DNA from: a bacterium
Lineage (GTDB): Bacteria; Patescibacteriota; Patescibacteriia; UBA1558; GWA2-36-10
Length of the DNA: 64,000 nt
NCBI GenBank assembly: GCA_018653315.1
Contig: JABIAL010000007.1
Span: forward strand, 11,348-75,347
Direction of reading: 5' to 3'
Below the pieces are notes generated by a model that worked only from the letters and a program-made list of their open reading frames with translations, searched no databases and was not told the origin of the DNA. The position numbers and the translations under genes are program-made. The stretch's first letter is position 1; each line of letters begins with the position of its first letter. Positions 1,008 through 31,169 of this stretch are shown here, piece by piece.

Positions 1008-2987
1008 ATGGGAAAAATTTTAGGAATCGATTTAGGTACTACTAATTCAGCCTTCGCTATTATCGAAGGTGGTCAACCAAAGATTTTGGAAAACAAAGAA
1101 GGTAGTAGAACTACTCCTTCTATGGTCGCTATTTCAAAAAATGGTGAACGCTTAGTAGGTATGCCGGCTAAACGTCAGGCAGTAACCAATCCAGAAAACA
1201 CAATTTTTTCAGTCAAGCGTTTGATCGGACGTAAATTTAGCGATGAGGCAGTAGCTGAAGATATCAAGACCGTGCCTTACAAAATTGTTCAGGATGGCGT
1301 GGGTGTAAAAGTTGCTATGAGTGGCAAAGATCATAGTCCACAAGAAATTTCTGCTATGATTTTGCAAAAGATCAAAGCTGATGCTGAAAGTAAATTAGGT
1401 GAACCAATCACCGAAGCTGTTATTACTGTGCCTGCTTATTTTGATGATTCACAAAGACAAGCTACCAAAGATGCTGGTAAAATTGCCGGTTTAGAAGTAA
1501 AAAGAATTATAAACGAACCAACAGCAGCAGCACTAGCTTATGGATTTGATAAAAAGAAAGATCAACAAGTAGTTGTTTATGATCTGGGTGGTGGTACTTT
1601 TGATGTTTCTGTTTTAGATGTTTCTGCAGATACTGTAGAGGTAAAGTCTACAAATGGCGATACTCATTTGGGTGGCGATGACTTTGATCAAGTTATTATC
1701 AAATGGATTTTGGAAGAATATAAAAAACAAGAAGGATTAGACTTATCCAATGATAATTTAGCTTTGCAAAGACTGAAAGAATCAGCTGAAAAAGCTAAGA
1801 TTGAGCTTTCTTCTTCTATGGAAACTGAAATCAATCAGCCATTTATCACTACTGATGAATCTGGTCCAAAGCATTTGGTGATGAAAATGACTCGTGCTCA
1901 ACTAGAAGATTTAGTTGGTGATTTAGTGACTAAGACTTTAGAGCCATGTAAAAAGGCTTTAGCTGATGCTAAATTAGAGGTCAAAGATATTGAGGAAGTT
2001 ATTATGGTTGGTGGTATGACTCGTATGCCACTTGTCCTAAAGAAAGTTGAAGAATTTTTTGGCAAAAAACCAAATGTTTCTGTAAACCCTGACGAAGTAG
2101 TAGCCTTAGGTGCAGCTGTACAAGCTGGAGTTTTGCAAGGTGATGTCAAAGATGTTTTATTGCTAGACGTAACTCCACTTACTTTGGGTATTGAAACTAT
2201 GGGTGGTGTCCGTACTCCATTGATTGATCGTAATACAACTATCCCAGCTTCAAAAACTCAGACCTTCTCTACTGCCGCTGATAGTCAGCCCAGTGTAGAG
2301 ATCCATGTCTTACAAGGTGAACGTGAGATGGCAGGGGATAATAAAACTTTAGGTAGATTTACTTTGACTGGTATTCCTCCAGCACCACGTGGTGTTCCTC
2401 AAATTGAAGTAAGTTTTGATATTGATGCTAATGGTATTTTGCATGTCAAAGCTGTAGATAAAGGAACTGGTACTGAACAAAAGATTACTATCCAAGCAAG
2501 CTCTGGTTTATCTGATGCTGATATTGAGAAAATGCAAAAGGATGCTGAGGTTCATGCTGATGAAGATAAGAAAAAGAAAGAAGCAGTGGAAACTCGTAAC
2601 TCTGCTGATAATATTGTTTTCCAAACTGAAAAATTTATCAAAGACAATGGAGATAAATTTAAAGAAGAAGATAAAAAAGAAATGGAAGACAAAACTGAAG
2701 CTCTTAAGAAAGTAAAAGACGGCGAAGATTTAGAAGCTATTAAAACTGCTACTAAAGATCTGGAAGAAGTTGTCCAAAAGATTGGGGCTGCAATGTATCA
2801 AAACCAATCAACCGAACAATCTAAGCCAGGTGAAGCTGATCCAAATGCAGATGCTGCTTCAGGTGAAGAGAAGAAAGAAGACACAGCTGAAGGCGACTTC
2901 GAAGATGTCAAACCATCCTCCGCCGAGGCTACGGATGGCAGGGAAGAAGACAAGAAAGAAGAAACTAAAACAGAAGAAACTAAATAA
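1008..2987 (+). CDS. dnaK: molecular chaperone DnaK (Hsp70)
   Basis: Hsp70 signatures are present: [24 protein letters not shown] and the [14 protein letters not shown] substrate-binding-domain motif. The protein is 659 aa. Confidence 0.97.
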
Positions 2988-4075
2988 TGTCCAAAGATTA
3001 TTACAAAATATTAGGCGTAGAAAAAAGTGCTTCGGCTGATGAAATAAAAAAAGCTTTTCGTAAAGTAGCTCATGAACATCATCCTGACAAAAATAATGGT
3101 CAAGATGAAAAGTTCAAAGAAGCCAATGAAGCTTATCAGACTTTGAGTGACAAAAGTAAACGCGCTCAATATGATCAATTTGGCAGTGCTTTTTCTGGTG
3201 GCCAAAGTGGTTTTGGCGGTGGTAATCCATTTGGGCAAGGCTTTGGCCAAGGTGGCGCTCAACAAACCGACTTTGATTTTGACTTAGGAGATATCTTTGG
3301 TAGTTTTTTTGGTGGACAAGGAGGCCAAGGTGGTGCAAGAGCTGGCCGGACTCAACGCGGATCTGATTTAGAAGTGAATTTAGAAATTACTTTGAAAGAA
3401 GCTGTCTTTGGTGTAAGTCACAATGTTTCTTTGCAAAGAAAAAGTCAGTGTCAGCCATGTCAGGGTACAGGTGCCAAAGAGGGTACTTCTTTTGATAAAT
3501 GTCCGACTTGTGATGGTGCCGGCCGAGTGACGACAACTATTTTGGGACAATTCCAGACACAGACTGCTTGTCCAGAATGTAGAGGCCAAGGTAAAAATAT
3601 TAAAGATAAATGTGGCGCTTGTAGTGGTCAAGGTATCACTGTCGAACATCAAGATATAAAAGTAGAGGTACCAGGTGGTATCGACACTGGTCAGTCTATT
3701 CGTCTCAGTGGACAAGGGGACAGTGGTGTTAATGGTGCGTCTGCTGGAGACTTGTATGTCAATATTCTCGTCAAACCTCAAGCTGATTTGGTGCGTGAAG
3801 GTTTTGATCTAATTTCTGAAATCAAAATTCCATTTACCATTGCAGCGATGGGCGGTGAAATAAAAGTAAATACAATAGACGGAAAAGTAAAATTAAAAAT
3901 CCCAACTGGTACTCAGAGTAATAAAAAATTTATTCTTCGCAATAAAGGTGTTACTAAATTGAAAAGCAGAGGACGAGGTGATCAGATTGTGATTATAGTT
4001 GTTGATGTGCCGACAAAACTGTCTAGAAAGCAGAAGAAACTTTTAGAAGAGTTGAGTAAAGAGTTGAATGATTAA
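2987..4075 (+). CDS. dnaJ: co-chaperone DnaJ
   Basis: It has a J domain with HPD (HHPDKN), a Gly/Phe-rich linker, four CxxCxGxG zinc-finger repeats and a C-terminal domain. Its start overlaps the dnaK stop. Confidence 0.95.
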
Positions 4076-13125: not shown

Positions 13126-13201
13126 GCCGGAATAGCTCAGTTGGTAGAGCAGTAGTTTTGTAAACTACGGGTCACGGGTTCGAGTCCTGTTTCCGGCTCC
13201 A
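13126..13201 (+). tRNA. tRNA-Thr (anticodon UGU), CCA encoded
   Basis: The cloverleaf was folded by hand: acceptor gccggaa/ttccggc, D arm gctc..gagc, anticodon stem gtagt/actac with loop tttgtaa, T arm acggg-ttcgagt-cctgt, then CCA. Confidence 0.85.
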
Positions 13202-13426: not shown

Positions 13427-13500
13427 GGGGGCGTCGTATAGTGGTAGTACAGGGGTCTCCAAAACCTCTTGCGTGGGTTCGATTCCTACCGCCCCTGCCA
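13427..13500 (+). tRNA. tRNA-Trp (anticodon CCA), CCA encoded
   Basis: The cloverleaf was folded by hand: acceptor gggggcg/cgcccct (G1-U72), D stem gtat/gtac, anticodon stem ggggt/acctc with loop ctccaaa, T arm gtggg-ttcgatt-cctac, then CCA. Confidence 0.8.
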
Positions 13501-21469: not shown

Positions 21470-21632
21470 CAATTGAATAAGAATTATCAAGAGTACGGGG
21501 AGAGTTTTGGCTCAATGATCCGTCAGCAACCTGTTTTTTAAATAAGGTGCTAAGTCCAACCCTCAAGTGGGAAGATGATGTTTGGTCGTATTAACTTTCC
21601 TTTTGGGGAAAGATTTTTTAATTTTAAAATAA
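21470..21632 (+). promoter_or_regulatory. SAM-I (S-box) riboswitch with intrinsic terminator
   Basis: The S-box core matches: uUAUCAAGAG...GGGGAGAG..UGGCUCaAUGAuCCGuCAGCAACC...AAGGUGCUAAguCC...GAAGAUGAug. The P1 3' strand GAUGA pairs with UUAUC. The terminator is ctttcc-ttttgg-ggaaag followed by TTTTTTAATTTT, directly upstream of metK. Confidence 0.8.
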
Positions 21633-21638
21633 AAGATT

Positions 21639-22646
21639 ATGTTAAAGACAGCAGAAAATGTAACTTGGGGACATCCAGATAAAGTATGTGATCAAATATC
21701 TGATGCTATTTTAGATGAGTGTTTGCGTCAAGATAAAAATAGTCGAGTGGCTGTAGAAACGGTTGGTGGCCATGGTAAATTGTTTATTGTCGGTGAATTA
21801 ACTACATTGGCTAAATTTGATGCAGCCAAGATAACTCGACAAGTGTATAAAGATATTGGCTATACGGATGATTTAGATATTACTGTACATTTAGTACATC
21901 AGAGCCCAGATATCGCTCAGGGAGTCGACGTAGGGGGCGCAGGTGATCAAGGAATCATGGTCGGCTATGCTACAGCAGAAACTGTAGAAAATTTACCACT
22001 AGAACATGTTTTGGCAACAAAATTAATTCGTCGTTTAGAATTTGTGCGAGCAGATAAGAATAATCAATTATCTCAATTTTTAGGACCAGATGGTAAAGCT
22101 CAGGTGACTATAGAAGATGACAAAGTAAAGACAGTAGTTTTATCTACTCAACATACAGATAATATCAGCCAAGGTGTTTTGCGGCAGTTAATTATAAAAG
22201 AAGTTATTAAGCCAATCATTCCAGAATATGATGAGGTTCATATTAATCCGACTGGTATTTTTGTACAGGGTGGTTTTGAGGCTGATTCTGGTTTGACTGG
22301 CCGTAAAATAACGATCGATAATTATGGACCACAAGTGCCAGTCGGTGGCGGTGCTTTTTCTGGAAAAGATCCTTCAAAAGTAGATCGTTCAGCTGCTTAT
22401 ATGGCTAGATTTTTAGCGGTTAAATACCTAAAAAAATATCAAGCTAAAGAAGTGCTAGTAAAATTAGCTTATGCTATAGGTAAGAAAGAACCAGTGATGG
22501 CCATGGCTTTATTAGATGATAATCGGCTGATAAAAATAGAGGATCATGATTTATCTCCGCAGGGTATTATTGATTTTTTACGCTTAGATAAGCCACAATA
22601 TAGGGATCGGGCTCGCTTTGGTTTCTTTAAAAATTTTATTCAATAA
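21639..22646 (+). CDS. metK: S-adenosylmethionine synthetase (short form, 335 aa)
   Basis: Contains GHPDKVCDQISDAILD, GAGDQGIMVGYA and GGGAFSGKDPSKVDRSAAY. The C-terminal part is shorter than in E. coli MetK. Confidence 0.9.
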   Translation: MLKTAENVTWGHPDKVCDQISDAILDECLRQDKNSRVAVETVGGHGKLFIVGELTTLAKFDAAKITRQVYKDIGYTDDLDITVHLVHQSPDIAQGVDVGGAGDQGIMVGYATAETVENLPLEHVLATKLIRRLEFVRADKNNQLSQFLGPDGKAQVTIEDDKVKTVVLSTQHTDNISQGVLRQLIIKEVIKPIIPEYDEVHINPTGIFVQGGFEADSGLTGRKITIDNYGPQVPVGGGAFSGKDPSKVDRSAAYMARFLAVKYLKKYQAKEVLVKLAYAIGKKEPVMAMALLDDNRLIKIEDHDLSPQGIIDFLRLDKPQYRDRARFGFFKNFIQ

Positions 22647-26118: not shown

Positions 26119-27444
26119 ATGCAAAACAAAAAACAAAAAATGCATGTTGTTACTGTTGATATGGGTTACGGCCATCAACGAGCAGCTTATCCTTTAGCGT
26201 CAGTTAGCGCCGGAGGAGTTATTAATGCCAATCAATATAAAGGCATCTCTAAGAATGAGGAGCGTTCTTGGCAGAAGGGTCGTAAATGGTATGAAATAAT
26301 TTCTCGTTTTAAAAAAGTGCCTATTTTAGGTGCGGTTGCTTTTGCGATGATGGATAATTTTCAAAAGATAGAACCTTTTTATCCACGACGTGATTTGTCT
26401 AAAACTTCTTCTCAACAAAGATATTTTTATAAAAAAGTTAAAAAAGGTCTAGGTAAAGATCTTATTACTACTTTAAATAAAAAACCTATTCCATTGGTGA
26501 CTACTTTTTTTGTGCCAGCTTATTTTGCTGAATACTGTAATTATGAGGGACAAATTTATTGTGTGGTTTGTGATGCTGATGTAGCTAGAGCTTGGGCACC
26601 CCATGATGCTAGGCATAGTAAAGTCATTTATTTAGCGCCAAATAAGCGTGTTAAAGAGCGTTTACAGCTTTATGGTGTACGGCCAAACAAGATTTATGTT
26701 ACGGGCTTTCCTTTACCAAAAGAGAATATCGGTGGTTTGCAACAAAAGATTTTAAAAGCCGATCTTAAAGTTCGTTTGTGCAATTTAGACCCTAAAGGAA
26801 TTTATCGCCATAAGTACAAGAATTTAATTGGGGCATACCTGTGTCCAGTTAGTGAATTACGCGCTAAACCAAAAGGAGTAACGATTACCTTTGCCGTTGG
26901 TGGCGCTGGTGCTCAACGAGAAATCGGAGTCACTTTATTACGGGTGCTTAAAAAACATATTAAAGCTGGTCGAATAAATTTAAATTTAGTAGCTGGCGTG
27001 CGGAATGATATTTATCGTTTTTTTGAAGAGGCGGTCAAACGATATGGTTTAGCTAATGCTAATAATGTTAATATCATCTTTGCTAATAACAAATACGATT
27101 ATTTTAAGATTTTTAATCGAGCTTTAAGAACAACAGATATTTTATGGACCAAGCCATCTGAGTTAACTTTTTATAGCGGTCTTGGTTTGCCGATTATCAT
27201 GGCTCCACCGATTGGCTCACAGGAAAAGTATAATCGTGATTGGCTGCAAGCTTTGGGAGCTGGTATTGATTCTGAGAATCCAGAATATGTTGATGAGTGG
27301 CTTTTTGATTGGCTAGATTCTGGTTGGTTAGCAGAAGCGGCCATGCAGGGATATTTAGATGCTCCTAAAATGGGCACCTATCATATAGAAAATATTGTTT
27401 TACATAATAAAGTAGAGGAGATAAAAGATGTTCAATTGTTATAA
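26119..27444 (+). CDS. GT28-family glycosyltransferase, MGDG-synthase/UgtP-like (glycolipid synthase)
   Basis: The N-terminal motif is HVVTVDMGYGHQRAA (G-x-GH). Also present are IYVTGFPLP and the C-terminal GT28 pattern ITFAVGGAGAQ...TKPSELTFYSGLGLPII...GSQEKYNRDWLQALGAGI. Confidence 0.6.
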   Translation: MQNKKQKMHVVTVDMGYGHQRAAYPLASVSAGGVINANQYKGISKNEERSWQKGRKWYEIISRFKKVPILGAVAFAMMDNFQKIEPFYPRRDLSKTSSQQRYFYKKVKKGLGKDLITTLNKKPIPLVTTFFVPAYFAEYCNYEGQIYCVVCDADVARAWAPHDARHSKVIYLAPNKRVKERLQLYGVRPNKIYVTGFPLPKENIGGLQQKILKADLKVRLCNLDPKGIYRHKYKNLIGAYLCPVSELRAKPKGVTITFAVGGAGAQREIGVTLLRVLKKHIKAGRINLNLVAGVRNDIYRFFEEAVKRYGLANANNVNIIFANNKYDYFKIFNRALRTTDILWTKPSELTFYSGLGLPIIMAPPIGSQEKYNRDWLQALGAGIDSENPEYVDEWLFDWLDSGWLAEAAMQGYLDAPKMGTYHIENIVLHNKVEEIKDVQLL

Positions 27445-28781
27445 TGAAAATTACTACACTACATATTAATTTATACAAAAGCATCAAGCAACCGATTAGT
27501 TTTTCTGCTTTGCCGGTCAATATTTTGATTGGTCAAAATAATTGCGGTAAGAGTAATATCTTATATGCTATTGATTACTTATTTGATGTACAGGGAGTTA
27601 GTCCTATTTTAGAATATCCAGGAGCTGATATTGAAGTAGAATTAGTTTTCACAGAAGAAGAATTGGATAGATGGAATTTACCAAGTAAAACAGCTAGTTT
27701 AACTATTAAAGATGAAAAAAGAAAACTAGCCTTTTCTAATCAGATTGTAAATTATAATGGTAATTGGAAGGATTTATTATCAGTCAAAATTAAGCATTTA
27801 AATTATGATGCTTTTAATGATTTAGAAGCGGTCGATAAAGATTGGCAAAGTTTGCAACAGCACAAAGAACATTTTAATAAATTTAAACAACATTTAAAAA
27901 ACCATTTTCCTAAAATTAGTGCCAAAGAAAATGCTTTAGATATTCATTATGAGCATGCCGGTATAAAAGAGGGGACACGTAAAGCTACTATTGATCATTT
28001 AGGTTCTGGTTTTCGTCGTATTTTTACTACTTTATTGTATATTTTTCATCCAGATTATCACATAGTTATTTTAGATGAACCAGAAACACATTTGCATCCA
28101 GTGCTAGTTAAGAAACTTTTATGGGCCATGCAAAATGCAGAAGGTGGTGGACAAATATTTTTTACCACTCATTCTCCTTTATTTATTAATTCAGTCACTT
28201 TACCGCAGGTATTGCGAGTAGTTAAAGATAGTGCTACTACTAAAGCTTTTGGTTTGCCAGTTAAAAAACAGCATTATAGTTATAAGCGTTTGATCCAAGA
28301 ATTGAATGCCGACAATGTTGAGATGTTATTTTCTGATACAACTATTTTAGTAGAGGGTATTTCTGATCGTATATTATTACGTGGCTTGATCGATCATTTT
28401 TATCAAGGTAATAAAGATATTAAAGTTGTGCAAACACATGGTAAAGGTAATATTGCTTTGTATGTAGATTTGTTAAAAATTTTTCATATTAATTATATTA
28501 TTTTAGCTGATAGAGATATTATAAAATATCAATTAGATAGAGTGATAAGTCATTTAGGGATAAAACCAAAAGCACGTAAAGCTAATGATTTAATTATTGA
28601 GCTTAAAGAATACAATGTATTTATTTTACCAGGCGGTTCAATAGAAAAACACTATCCAAAGAAATATCAGCGTGATGATAAAAAAACACTTAATGCTTTG
28701 TATGCGGCAACTGCTATTACCAAGACAGAATTTAATTCAAAAATAATGAAACCCTTGAAAGAGATAATAGATAGATTATAA
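27444..28781 (+). CDS. OLD-family (overcoming lysogenization defect) ABC-ATPase + Toprim nuclease, class-1-like single gene
   Basis: Walker A is NILIGQNNCGKSNIL and Walker B is VILDEPETHLHP. The C-terminal Toprim has TILVEGISDRILL and ILADRDI (DxD). The start overlaps the upstream stop as TAATG. Confidence 0.7.
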   Translation: MKITTLHINLYKSIKQPISFSALPVNILIGQNNCGKSNILYAIDYLFDVQGVSPILEYPGADIEVELVFTEEELDRWNLPSKTASLTIKDEKRKLAFSNQIVNYNGNWKDLLSVKIKHLNYDAFNDLEAVDKDWQSLQQHKEHFNKFKQHLKNHFPKISAKENALDIHYEHAGIKEGTRKATIDHLGSGFRRIFTTLLYIFHPDYHIVILDEPETHLHPVLVKKLLWAMQNAEGGGQIFFTTHSPLFINSVTLPQVLRVVKDSATTKAFGLPVKKQHYSYKRLIQELNADNVEMLFSDTTILVEGISDRILLRGLIDHFYQGNKDIKVVQTHGKGNIALYVDLLKIFHINYIILADRDIIKYQLDRVISHLGIKPKARKANDLIIELKEYNVFILPGGSIEKHYPKKYQRDDKKTLNALYAATAITKTEFNSKIMKPLKEIIDRL

Positions 28782-28810: not shown

Positions 28811-28861
28811 ATGGAAACATGTCCAAATTGCGGTAATGATCCATGTACTTGCGGTGCATAA
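28811..28861 (+). CDS. possible 16-aa Cys-rich peptide (METCPNCGNDPCTCGA)
   Basis: It has four Cys in 16 aa and is followed directly by an intrinsic terminator. There is no SD. This is speculative. Confidence 0.2.
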   Translation: METCPNCGNDPCTCGA

Positions 28862-28870
28862 ATAAAAGAA

Positions 28871-28936
28871 CGGCCTCTTTATCAGAATGAGGCTGTTTTT
28901 TATTTGAGTAAAAAAAGCCCGTTTTCTTGACGGGCT
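28871..28936. terminator. two convergent intrinsic terminators
   Basis: The plus-strand terminator is cggcctc..gaggctg followed by T6. The minus-strand terminator is the reverse complement of agcccgt-tttcttg-acgggct preceded by A7. Confidence 0.7.
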
Positions 28937-29158
28937 TATGAGGGGTACTACCGTTGACAATCAGCGCTTTGCGTTATGCCGGTGGCATTGTCCATAATCA
29001 TTTCCGGGGTGTTGGCTGCGTTTTTCATTTCAGCATTGACCATCTTGGCCTGAGGAGGAATGAGTAAGTGCTTCAAAAGAAGCTCCCTTCTTTAATAAAA
29101 AGCTTGCCATGATCATAGAGGTTTTTCCTCTAGTATAAAAAATTGAGAGTACATTAAT
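28909..29158 (-). ncRNA. candidate small RNA (or micro-protein gene): a GC-rich ~250-nt transcription unit
   Basis: A minus-strand consensus promoter, TTGACA-17-TACAAT, lies at 29165-29193, and an intrinsic terminator lies at 28909-28936. The body is about 50% GC in a ~30% GC genome and has no ORF longer than 33 codons. Several local hairpins are present. Confidence 0.4.
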
Positions 29159-29164
29159 GCATTA

Positions 29165-29216
29165 ATTGTATTAAAAATTTATTTTTTTGTCAAAGTTAGG
29201 CAAAAAATGATATAAT
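29165..29216. promoter_or_regulatory. face-to-face divergent promoters sharing one -35 region
   Basis: The plus-strand promoter is TTGTCA-17-(TGa)TATAAT, driving the gene at 29243. The minus-strand promoter is TTGACA-17-TACAAT. The two -35 hexamers overlap at 29187-29193. Confidence 0.55.
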
Positions 29217-29242
29217 ATAAACAATCATTAAATCAAAATTTT

Positions 29243-30172
29243 ATGGATTGGTTAATTATTGCTATTGCTGCTTATTTAATTTTAGCAGTTGTCAATTTAG
29301 CAGATAAATTTTTATTAGAAAAGGTAGTTCCCAGTGCTAAGGCCTATACATTTTTAGTTGGCGTTTTAGGTTTAGCTGTGATTGTGATTGCGCCTTGGTT
29401 TTTAAGCTGGCCCGGGTGGTATTTATTATTTGGCAATTTAGCAATTGGTGCTTTATTTCCAGTAGCATTGTTATTGTTATATCATGCCTTAAAGATTGGT
29501 GATGTTTCCAAAATTATTCCATTAATTGGCGGAGCAGTTCCAATTTTTACACTTATTTTGGCCATGTTATTTTTGGGAGAAAGATTTTTATCAATGCAAT
29601 GGGTAGCAATTTTTTATTTATTGTTAGGAACAGTAATGTTAGCCTATTTGCCAACCGGCCATAATTTATGGAGTACAGTAAAATCATGGTTTGGTCTGAC
29701 TGGTCCAAAAAATAAACAAGCAGTAATGATAGCCATTGGAGCGGGTTTTGTATTTGCCGCTTTTTTTGTTGGTACTAAATTTTTGTATCTTCATCAGCCA
29801 TTTTTGAGTAGCTTTATTTGGATTAGAATTGGTACATTTTTGATAAGTTTAACTTTATTAATACCAAAAGATTTACGTAAAGAAATTTTTAAAGGACTTA
29901 AGAACATCAAAGGTAAAAATAGTGCATTGTTTTTTTCTAATCAAGGCATTGCCGCAATTGGATTTTTATTACAAAACTATGCTATTTTCTTAGGTTCGGT
30001 AGCCATAGTTAATGCTTTGCAGGGCGTGCAATTTGCCTTCCTATTAGTCTTAGGTGGATTGATTTCTGTCTTTTTCCCAAAATTACTCAAAGAAAATGTT
30101 TCTAAAATGGTTATTATTCAAAAGATTTTAGCGATTGTTTTGATTAGCTTGGGTTTGTATTTTATTATTTAG
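29243..30172 (+). CDS. DMT-superfamily (EamA-like) transporter
   Basis: 309 aa with 10 TM helices arranged as two EamA-like halves. Confidence 0.5.
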   Translation: MDWLIIAIAAYLILAVVNLADKFLLEKVVPSAKAYTFLVGVLGLAVIVIAPWFLSWPGWYLLFGNLAIGALFPVALLLLYHALKIGDVSKIIPLIGGAVPIFTLILAMLFLGERFLSMQWVAIFYLLLGTVMLAYLPTGHNLWSTVKSWFGLTGPKNKQAVMIAIGAGFVFAAFFVGTKFLYLHQPFLSSFIWIRIGTFLISLTLLIPKDLRKEIFKGLKNIKGKNSALFFSNQGIAAIGFLLQNYAIFLGSVAIVNALQGVQFAFLLVLGGLISVFFPKLLKENVSKMVIIQKILAIVLISLGLYFII

Positions 30173-30176
30173 TAAA

Positions 30177-31169
30177 ATGAAATTGTTGAAAATTATAATT
30201 ATAATTTTAATTGTTGTTTGGGCGATTTGGTTTGTTAAATTTTCTAAACATTATGTTCATAATGGCGAACTAAATGAAAATCCAGATTTGTGGGGAGTTA
30301 CTTTTTCTACTAAATTTGCTAGTGAATTAGATTTGGATATTGGTGAAACTTATAGGGCTATTTTAGATGATTTACAAGTAAGACAGATTAGATTACCTAT
30401 TTATTGGGATCAGATAGAAAAATATGAAAATGAATTTGATTTCTCATTGTTTGATCAATTGTTAGTAGAAGGTAAAAAAAGAGATGTAAAATTTATTGTT
30501 AATTTAGGTTGGCGTTTACCTCGTTGGCCAGAATGTCATGCTCCGCTTTGGGCTAAAGATATGTCAATTGAGGATGTTCAGGCCAAAACATTACGGATGT
30601 TGCGAGTTGCCGTGGGTCATTACAAAGGACATTCAGAAATAGTGGCCTGGCAAATAGAAAATGAGCCTTTAGTTGATTGGTTTGGTAAATGTCCAGCTGG
30701 TGATGAAGAATTTTTAAAGCAAGAAGTAGCTTTGGTAAAAAGTTTAGATGGTCGGCCGGTGATTGTCTCGGCTTCAGGTGAGCTTAGTTTTTGGCAAAGA
30801 GAAGCTGAAGTAGGCGATGTTTTAGCTACTACTGTTTATCGGGTGGTGTGGAATCCATGGTTCAAATATTTTCGTTATCCGTTGCCAGCTTGGTTTTATT
30901 CTTGGAAAGCAGGTCGTGTAGGAAAAACAGGAGAAAAAATGATAGTTAGTGAACTGCAGGCTGAGCCTTGGGTGATAGATGGTGGTATGAATAAAATAGA
31001 TCAAGCAGAAGTTGATAAGTCTATGAGTTTAGAACAATTTGAATCAAATTTAAAGTTTGCTCAAAAAATAAATTTTGATAAAAATTATCTATGGGGAGTA
31101 GAGTGGTGGTATTTGCAAAAAATCAACGGAAATGATGATTATTGGAATTTAGCTAAAAAACTTTTTTAG
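30177..31169 (+). CDS. membrane-anchored clan GH-A (GH5-like) glycoside hydrolase
   Basis: An N-terminal TM helix is followed by a TIM-barrel pattern with the catalytic acid/base motif WQIENEP and a later ELQAEPW nucleophile region. Confidence 0.5.
   Translation: MKLLKIIIIILIVVWAIWFVKFSKHYVHNGELNENPDLWGVTFSTKFASELDLDIGETYRAILDDLQVRQIRLPIYWDQIEKYENEFDFSLFDQLLVEGKKRDVKFIVNLGWRLPRWPECHAPLWAKDMSIEDVQAKTLRMLRVAVGHYKGHSEIVAWQIENEPLVDWFGKCPAGDEEFLKQEVALVKSLDGRPVIVSASGELSFWQREAEVGDVLATTVYRVVWNPWFKYFRYPLPAWFYSWKAGRVGKTGEKMIVSELQAEPWVIDGGMNKIDQAEVDKSMSLEQFESNLKFAQKINFDKNYLWGVEWWYLQKINGNDDYWNLAKKLF

Follow-up and report, generated by a model that had tools for sequence, protein, structure and literature searches.

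The window, as we term the entire 64-kb stretch of DNA analysed here, contains a short intergenic region between an OLD-family ATPase-TOPRIM gene (27444-28781, plus strand) and an EamA/DMT transporter gene starting at 29243. The neighbouring genes encode an MGDG-synthase-like/DUF6938 protein, the OLD-family ATPase, EamA, a GH-like protein and an S8 peptidase, and all of them are kept in relatives that carry no small-gene cassette at this site. The closest relatives of the EamA/DMT protein were found in metagenome bins of Candidatus Komeilibacteria and other Patescibacteria (CPR); related loci are designated here by L numbers.

The OLD-family gene matched Pfam AAA_15, AAA_21 and OLD-like_TOPRIM as well as PADLOC Old (1e-35). 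Its 445-aa ATPase-TOPRIM product is a member of the OLD/Gabija-GajA/PARIS-AriA superfamily; typical Old or GajA proteins are longer (~570-630 aa). Across relatives, the OLD-family gene and the MGDG-synthase-like DUF6938 gene upstream of it are conserved together. Directly 3′ of the OLD-family gene lies a conserved 16-aa micro-ORF with four cysteines, METCPNCGNDPCTCGA (28811-28861, plus strand). The versions in relatives are MELCPECGNDPCTCEE (L092), MEPCPNCGNEPCTCGA (L090), MNEPCPSCGNEPCTCGQ (L089) and the in-frame shortened MESCICGA (L008), with synonymous differences among them; its product may be a mini zinc-knuckle peptide with a link to the OLD-type nuclease. Elsewhere, the window holds a SAM-I riboswitch (Rfam RF00162, 63.7 bits; 21481-21581, plus strand) upstream of an ORF at 21639-22646, and the plus-strand genes for tRNA-Thr(UGU) (13126-13201) and tRNA-Trp(CCA) (13427-13500).

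A minus-strand transcription unit with its own promoter and terminator

The first-pass annotation of this region had proposed a minus-strand transcription unit of its own, running from a near-consensus promoter to an intrinsic terminator. Our analysis confirmed this independent unit, and all of it is kept in the related genome L008. The promoter scan placed the −35 hexamer TTGACA at 29188..29193 and the −10 hexamer TACAAT at 29165..29170, spaced by 17 nt, such that the promoter (29193..29165) matches 11 of 12 consensus positions. The −35 hexamer is kept in unit B of L008, where the −10 column reads TATAAT. At the other end, the intrinsic terminator AAGCCCGUC-AAGAAAA-CGGGCUU with its U-run (28908..28937, minus strand) was also present, its stem (28937..28915) comprising eight pairs, five of them GC, followed by TTTTT; it is kept in L008 at 2475..2455.

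The scan also recovered the divergent promoter of the EamA/DMT gene, TTGTCA-18-TGaTATAAT with a TG extension (29187..29216, plus strand), which ends 27 nt ahead of the EamA start codon. The claim that the two divergent promoters have a −35 in common was borne out: the minus-strand TTGACA (29188..29193) and the EamA TTGTCA (29187-29192, plus strand) overlap by 5 bp within the heptamer TTGTCAA, and the stretch from 29181 to 29242 is 97% identical between the window and L008. With their −35 elements overlapping, the promoters of the small gene and of EamA probably compete for polymerase. The expected number of TTGACA-N16-18-TAYAAT sites in the 64-kb window is 0.14; five are present, a count that no shuffle out of 100 attained. 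Since this is far above expectation, such promoters are real signals in this genome.

From this promoter, housekeeping-sigma RNA polymerase would start near 29158, a position set from the usual −10 spacing, and would yield an mRNA of approximately 250 nt. The small transcription unit is probably strongly expressed.

A further terminator-like hairpin with a T-run, convergent to the unit, was read from the sequence at 28870..28901 on the plus strand. The operon that comprises the OLD-family ATPase gene and the 16-aa micro-ORF ends at this predicted terminator, which forms the far boundary of the unit. The pattern scan for terminators, which has a loop limit of 3-8 nt, made no call at this hairpin, probably since its loop, approximately 11 nt as read, exceeds that limit.

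A 42-codon open reading frame with a TTG start

The interval within the unit had been described as lacking any ORF longer than 33 codons. This holds for ATG starts only: the ORF list made with bacterial start codons contains a TTG-start ORF of 42 codons plus stop (28948..29076, minus strand), whose product is MKHLLIPPQAKMVNAEMKNAANTPEMIMDNATGITQSADCQR. The 31-codon ATG ORF singled out in the first-pass annotation is the 3′ part of this frame; as a gene in itself it was rejected, having no Shine-Dalgarno (SD) sequence of its own. A SD sequence, GGGAG (29083..29087, minus strand), lies 6 nt ahead of the TTG and would start translation of the 42-aa product, and transcription would end at the intrinsic terminator, the stem of which begins 11 nt past the stop codon. 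In L008, the matching column and spacing read AAGGAG-6 nt-ATG, compared with GGGAG-6 nt-TTG in the window. GGAG or GAGG precedes 5 of the 57 long ORFs in the window (background 3.9%) and is present at the window's other monocistronic small genes.

The base composition of the interval was likewise in part as described. Its GC content is locally high (0.49 at 28950-29049, against 0.33 window-wide) but not unique, as nearby coding sequence reaches 0.45-0.49 (27200-27349 and 30750-30849). Within the 42-codon ORF, GC1/GC2/GC3 are 0.50/0.38/0.57; since GC3 > GC1 > GC2, the composition varies by codon position. The GC3 of 0.57 compares with 0.24±0.07, and a maximum of 0.445, in the 57 long ORFs.

Other short ORFs on the locus were also rejected. 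The 28-codon ORF beginning MIMASF (29116..29030) has a seven-codon counterpart of unrelated sequence in L008, and the plus-strand ORFs of 37 and 25 aa are antisense frames that contain stops, show few synonymous changes and have no promoter. Gene callers run on other assemblies had picked up both versions, that of L008 as a protein of 42 aa and that of the window truncated to 31 aa (P0121, P0122). Candidate detectable peptides of the predicted 42-aa product are HLLIPPQAK, MVNAEMK and NAANTPEMIMDNATGITQSADCQR.

Two more monocistronic units of the window, at 6889-6457 and 12935-12571 (both minus strand), have perfect TTGACA-17-TATAAT promoters with a TG extension, a GGAG SD and an intrinsic terminator, and encode small membrane-like proteins of 101 and 80 aa with a raised GC3 of ~0.4. 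Because these genes show the same promoter-SD-ORF-terminator style, monocistronic small-protein genes are normal in this genome. All short monocistronic genes examined have a strong SD, compared with 5 of 57 long ORFs (GGAG or GAGG at −20 to −4); this suggests two translation-initiation modes in this genome, the long-ORF starts being mechanical first-start calls and the figure accordingly rough.

Comparison with a related genome

The genome L008, in which EamA is 82% identical, carries the same unit (nhmmer E=1e-33). Conservation extends from the −35 hexamer through the terminator and includes the promoter, the SD, the position of the start codon (TTG versus ATG), the length of 42 codons and the terminator itself. 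The L008 ortholog of the peptide is MKRLLIPPQIKMIVTNAATKNAAANTPKLDVDVAGRTQSANW, and all gaps in the peptide alignment correspond to whole codons (2, 1 and 1 codons). Nucleotide identity is 65% in the ORF and 68% in the 3′ end.

Among the 39 aligned codons, 14 are identical, 11 differ by synonymous changes only and 14 are non-synonymous, giving 25 changed codons. For this single species pair, dS was 1.06 and dN 0.226 (dN/dS 0.21, 39 codons). Random placement of the same substitutions gave 4.3±1.9 synonymous-only codons, compared with the 11 observed (P=0.0018). The 42-codon ORF is moreover the only one of the six frames that is free of stops, the other five containing 2-7 synonymous codons and 1-6 stops. 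The test rests on 39 codons because there are only two species-level orthologs and the copies are identical within each species; among same-species contigs, we detected no polymorphism in the unit, and the intergenic region is identical.

Within this one species pair, the codon comparison thus shows selection acting on the predicted peptide sequence. The first-pass annotation had called the unit ORF-less and had stated that a small ORF, conserved and under purifying selection, would overturn this view. Such an ORF was found, although it is the 42-codon TTG frame and not the 31-codon ATG frame. Taken together, the sequence features indicate that the unit is likely a monocistronic, previously unannotated orphan gene for a 42-aa protein in an uncultured Komeilibacteria-like CPR bacterium.

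Searches for an RNA family and for conserved structure

Prior to this comparison, the unit had been read as a purely non-coding structured or regulatory RNA in which any ORF is incidental. The GC-rich segment stands in an AT-rich genome, gene callers run on the window's own species called no 42-aa gene, and the peptide has no homologues beyond two species, all of which would suit such an RNA. The RNA-level searches pointed the other way. At gathering thresholds, Rfam gave no match at the site, and at E<=10 it returned only terminator look-alikes. The best sub-threshold matches, ncr1015 and ncr1175, scored 28-30 bits against a cut-off of 60, and the ncr1175 alignment displays the two back-to-back hairpins, namely that at 28870..28901 on the plus strand and the minus-strand terminator. 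The octamer GCAGCCAA, which had been likened to SRP helix 8, found no support, as SRP, 6S, tmRNA and RNase P were unmatched even at E<=10; ARAGORN detected no tmRNA, and Rfam had no match on the ortholog islands, including that of L008 (E<=0.1).

Folding gave a similar picture. The minimum free energy (MFE) of the unit equals that of shuffled sequences (z −0.64 on the minus strand and −0.76 on the plus strand), and the leaders alone ranged from +0.27 to −1.26 against shuffles. An alifold covariation check, which is weak in comprising two sequences only, predicted 37 pairs, of which one is compensatory. With neither an Rfam match, nor excess folding stability, nor more than this one compensatory pair in 37, the structured-RNA reading was not upheld. 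A non-coding role is further at odds with the excess of synonymous changes (P=0.002) in the sole open frame of six, with the conservation of the SD and start codon, and with peptide gaps in whole codons. We accordingly regard a purely non-coding RNA as highly improbable and favour the protein-coding gene.

The conserved 5′ end and the leader hairpins

The predicted mRNA would carry a 5′ leader of approximately 82 nt (29077..29158, minus strand), its start being the putative transcription start. The first 23 nt (29158..29136, AUUAAUGUACUCUCAAUUUUUUA) are identical at all 23 positions in L008, compared with 67% identity over the remaining leader; the most conserved part of the unit is thus the untranslated 5′ end and not the ORF. 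Folds of both species leave this 23-nt stretch unpaired.

Downstream of it, MFE and centroid folds of both species contain a hairpin, UAGAGG-AAAAA-CCUCUA (29132..29116, minus strand), followed by a U-rich spacer; the UAGAGG/CCUCUA stem is conserved without covariation. A second, 5-bp hairpin, GCUUC-UUUU-GAAGC (29070..29083, minus strand), includes the final G of the SD as well as the start-codon G. Its L008 counterpart is GCUUC-CUAU-GAAGC, the stem again being conserved without covariation, and from its position this GCUUC/GAAGC hairpin may modulate initiation.

The conserved, single-stranded 5′ end raises the question of whether the transcript is a dual-function RNA, which would be translated into the 42-aa peptide and would also act as a base-pairing riboregulator through that end. 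Identity of 100% over the first 23 nt, compared with 65-78% in the remainder, the unpaired state of the stretch in both species' folds, and the sRNA-like size with a strong promoter and terminator are all consistent with this idea, as is the appearance of unit C of L008 and unit u3 of L089, which show no visible SD-led ORF and look like plain sRNAs. Nevertheless, no base-pairing target was identified and the unit has no Rfam relative. The conserved 23 nt also adjoin the promoter and might just as well act at the DNA level, for example as an operator or an initial transcribed region. Moreover, a run of 23 matches at ~70% identity over 250 positions is only marginally surprising (estimate ~0.07). 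It is mainly because the first 23 nt are 100% identical that a dual-function or regulatory-leader reading is kept alive; we consider the dual-function reading unlikely, and the unit to be first of all the gene for a 42-aa protein.

Several other regulatory elements were considered. A palindrome at the transcription start, ATTAATGCATTAAT (L008 counterpart ATTAATATATTAAT), is not enriched in the window (7 occurrences against 3.1 expected, a number reached by 6 of 100 shuffles) and is kept as no more than a tentative operator candidate. Attenuation by a ribosome-masked terminator was set aside as the distance from stop codon to stem, 11 nt here and ~18 nt in L008, is not conserved. A leader-peptide attenuator was dismissed because no minus-strand gene follows, and what lies beyond the terminator is the convergent terminator and the 3′ ends of plus-strand genes.

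Properties of the predicted peptide

The 42-aa peptide is polar and non-hydrophobic, with neither a transmembrane segment nor a signal peptide. Its AlphaFold model (pLDDT 61) contains no helices and no defined fold. Given the non-hydrophobic sequence and the low-confidence, helix-free model, the peptide is probably disordered. A tentative best guess is that it acts as a small cytoplasmic binding or regulatory peptide. A type I toxin was rejected, the peptide being polar and the best plus-strand promoter-like site in 28940-29160 falling below the reporting threshold of the scan.

Searches for homologues returned the two orthologs only. Neither a profile search of 5.8 billion proteins nor an exhaustive HMMER search of 1.84 billion representative proteins found a homologue beyond them, and none was present among viral contigs and a phage genome collection. 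Pfam and PADLOC had no match to the peptide, and a peptide-pattern scan of metagenome contigs found nothing; scanning such contigs with 21 nt of the leader recovered the L008-type species only. Among 80 syntenic loci from other genomes, the unit was confined to L008 and L009 (the latter labelled Komeilibacteria SI047_bin69), which represent one species-level relative; the SI047 label may point to Saanich Inlet as its source. The loci of EamA relatives at 91, 80, 79 and 77% identity all lacked an ortholog of the L008 unit B type; one of these loci, L089, carries a short paralogue, and two have no island at all.

A variable island of small units

The site between the OLD-family gene and EamA varies in content among close relatives. 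L092 and L088 have no unit and an intergenic region of ~100 nt. The window has one unit, L090 one of another type (array span 1001-1734), L089 four (1797-3000) and L008 five (1448-3000, minus strand). Each unit of L008 and L089 has a TTGACA-16/18-TATAAT-like promoter, and nearly all have an intrinsic terminator that was detected by the scan or is visible. Related loci totalling 527 kb contain 12 perfect consensus promoters, seven of which lie inside these islands.

Short paralogues of the window peptide are encoded by unit A of L008 (MRKLPLIITLVTNTG) and unit u2 of L089 (MKRLNPPIITVTTMENAQMQS), each with a strong GAGGTGA SD. They share the N-terminus MK[RH]L..PP with the window peptide and differ in their tails and lengths; judged from these sequences, their C-terminal ends do not look conserved. 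Another type of unit carries an SD-led ORF of 39-43 codons (MINWFLTRLF...IDLRYEHPD) with 10-14 synonymous codon changes per pair. Units of this type are GC-rich and ~350-450 nt long (L008 ~1945-1554, L089 ~2225-1886 and L090 ~1530-1080, all minus strand), and have a long GC-rich 3′ part; in L008 and L090 this part includes an SD-led mini-ORF of seven codons, MRHLYPP and MRHMHPT, respectively. They matched no Rfam or tmRNA model, and the three sequences gave no clean consensus structure. In units C (2411..2202) and D (2183..2026) of L008 and u3 of L089 (2470..~2300), we saw no convincing SD-led ORF, and none matches Rfam; these units may encode sRNAs.

The GC3 of all island ORFs is 0.49-0.72, compared with 0.24±0.07 in the window's 57 long ORFs. 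Being so far above the long ORFs, the cassettes have atypical codon usage, which could reflect foreign origin, a strong expression bias or RNA-level constraint. Identity between the window and L008 runs up to GCCTAAC-TTTGACAAAAAA, after which they differ by one whole unit, a pattern that fits gain or loss by junction recombination. Cassettes are probably gained and lost by recombination at the repeated terminator/promoter junctions, in which a T-run is followed by TTGACAAAAAA. The 42-aa gene is one cassette of a fast-turnover small-gene island, each cassette bringing its own promoter and terminator.

The arrangement of the paralogues bears on one further interpretation of the peptide, namely that it is the precursor of a processed or exported peptide, RiPP-like or signalling, with MK[RH]L..PP as a 'leader' and the variable C-terminus as a 'core', exported and processed through the adjacent EamA transporter and the downstream S8 peptidase. 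The paralogues are alike at the N-terminus and completely different in C-terminus and length, the genes stand in tandem arrays, the promoter points away from that of EamA/DMT and overlaps it, and an S8 peptidase gene lies 2 kb away. However, cassette-less relatives such as L092 have kept the EamA, GH-like and S8 genes; as these persist without cassettes, they are not dedicated partners. Furthermore, Pfam searches of the tested neighbours and the gene tables revealed no recognisable modifying enzyme, C39 peptidase or ABC exporter, the peptide has no signal peptide, double-glycine motif or known leader motif, and its single Cys is not conserved. We consider a precursor, including its export by this route, to be very unlikely, and retain the reading of a gene for a 42-aa protein.

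Discussion

Micro-protein genes of fewer than 50 aa that annotation had missed have been catalogued for E. coli, Salmonella and S. aureus (PMC6001520, PMC8195425, sORFdb PMC11796252). Like these, the gene described here consists of one short ORF that stands alone with a promoter, an SD and a terminator of its own; it is also species-restricted, has no domain match and was skipped or truncated by gene callers. It differs from them in belonging to a tandem cassette array, in residing in a CPR bacterium and in having a codon usage foreign to its host. Many characterised micro-proteins are single-helix membrane proteins, whereas the window peptide is polar and predicted to be disordered.

Dual-function sRNAs include SR1/SR1P of B. 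subtilis (39 aa), RNAIII/hld of S. aureus (26 aa) and SgrS/SgrT of E. coli. Similar to these RNAs (~200-500 nt), the unit combines a strong promoter and an intrinsic terminator with a short, conserved SD-led ORF and a conserved untranslated segment; in contrast to them, it has no Rfam sequence or structure match to SR1, RNAIII or SgrS, and no base-pairing target was identified for it. Tandem units with small ORFs are also found at type I toxin-antitoxin loci (hok/sok, ldr, ibs/sib, fst, aapA/isoA), with which the island shares short ORFs, long structured leaders, tandem copies, variable copy number and strong promoters. It departs from them in that the peptide is not hydrophobic, the unit contains no convergent or antisense promoter, and no Rfam toxin or antitoxin RNA was matched. 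Tandem clusters of sRNA genes are exemplified by LhrC1-5 of Listeria and Qrr1-4 of Vibrio. As in those clusters, the short units stand in one intergenic region, each with its own promoter and terminator; however, several island units carry conserved ORFs that we read as translated, and the units are not copies of one RNA.

A broader interpretation is that the array of 0-5 autonomous micro-genes in this Komeilibacteria-like clade, each with a consensus promoter, leader hairpin, SD, ORF of 7-43 codons and terminator, constitutes an undescribed small-peptide diversification system. It would bring together the host-foreign codon usage and one peptide family with a conserved N-terminal 'leader' and hypervariable tails. 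We rate such a system as quite unlikely; if it were real, an episymbiotic CPR bacterium might use the diversified peptides as effectors against phages or defence systems, or in interaction with its host.

Collectively, our findings argue against automatically equating a GC-rich, seemingly ORF-less island of an AT-rich CPR genome with a structured RNA, and they correct what was likely a mis-call. Allowing TTG starts and comparing one relative were enough to expose the coding signature. Taken alone, the gene is ordinary and its evidence comes from two species, while the cassette-like island is the more unusual aspect. The likely gene would add a family of orphan micro-proteins to a phylum in which small proteins are essentially unexplored, and it places a compact, highly variable island of apparently strongly promoted mini-genes next to a defence-type nuclease.
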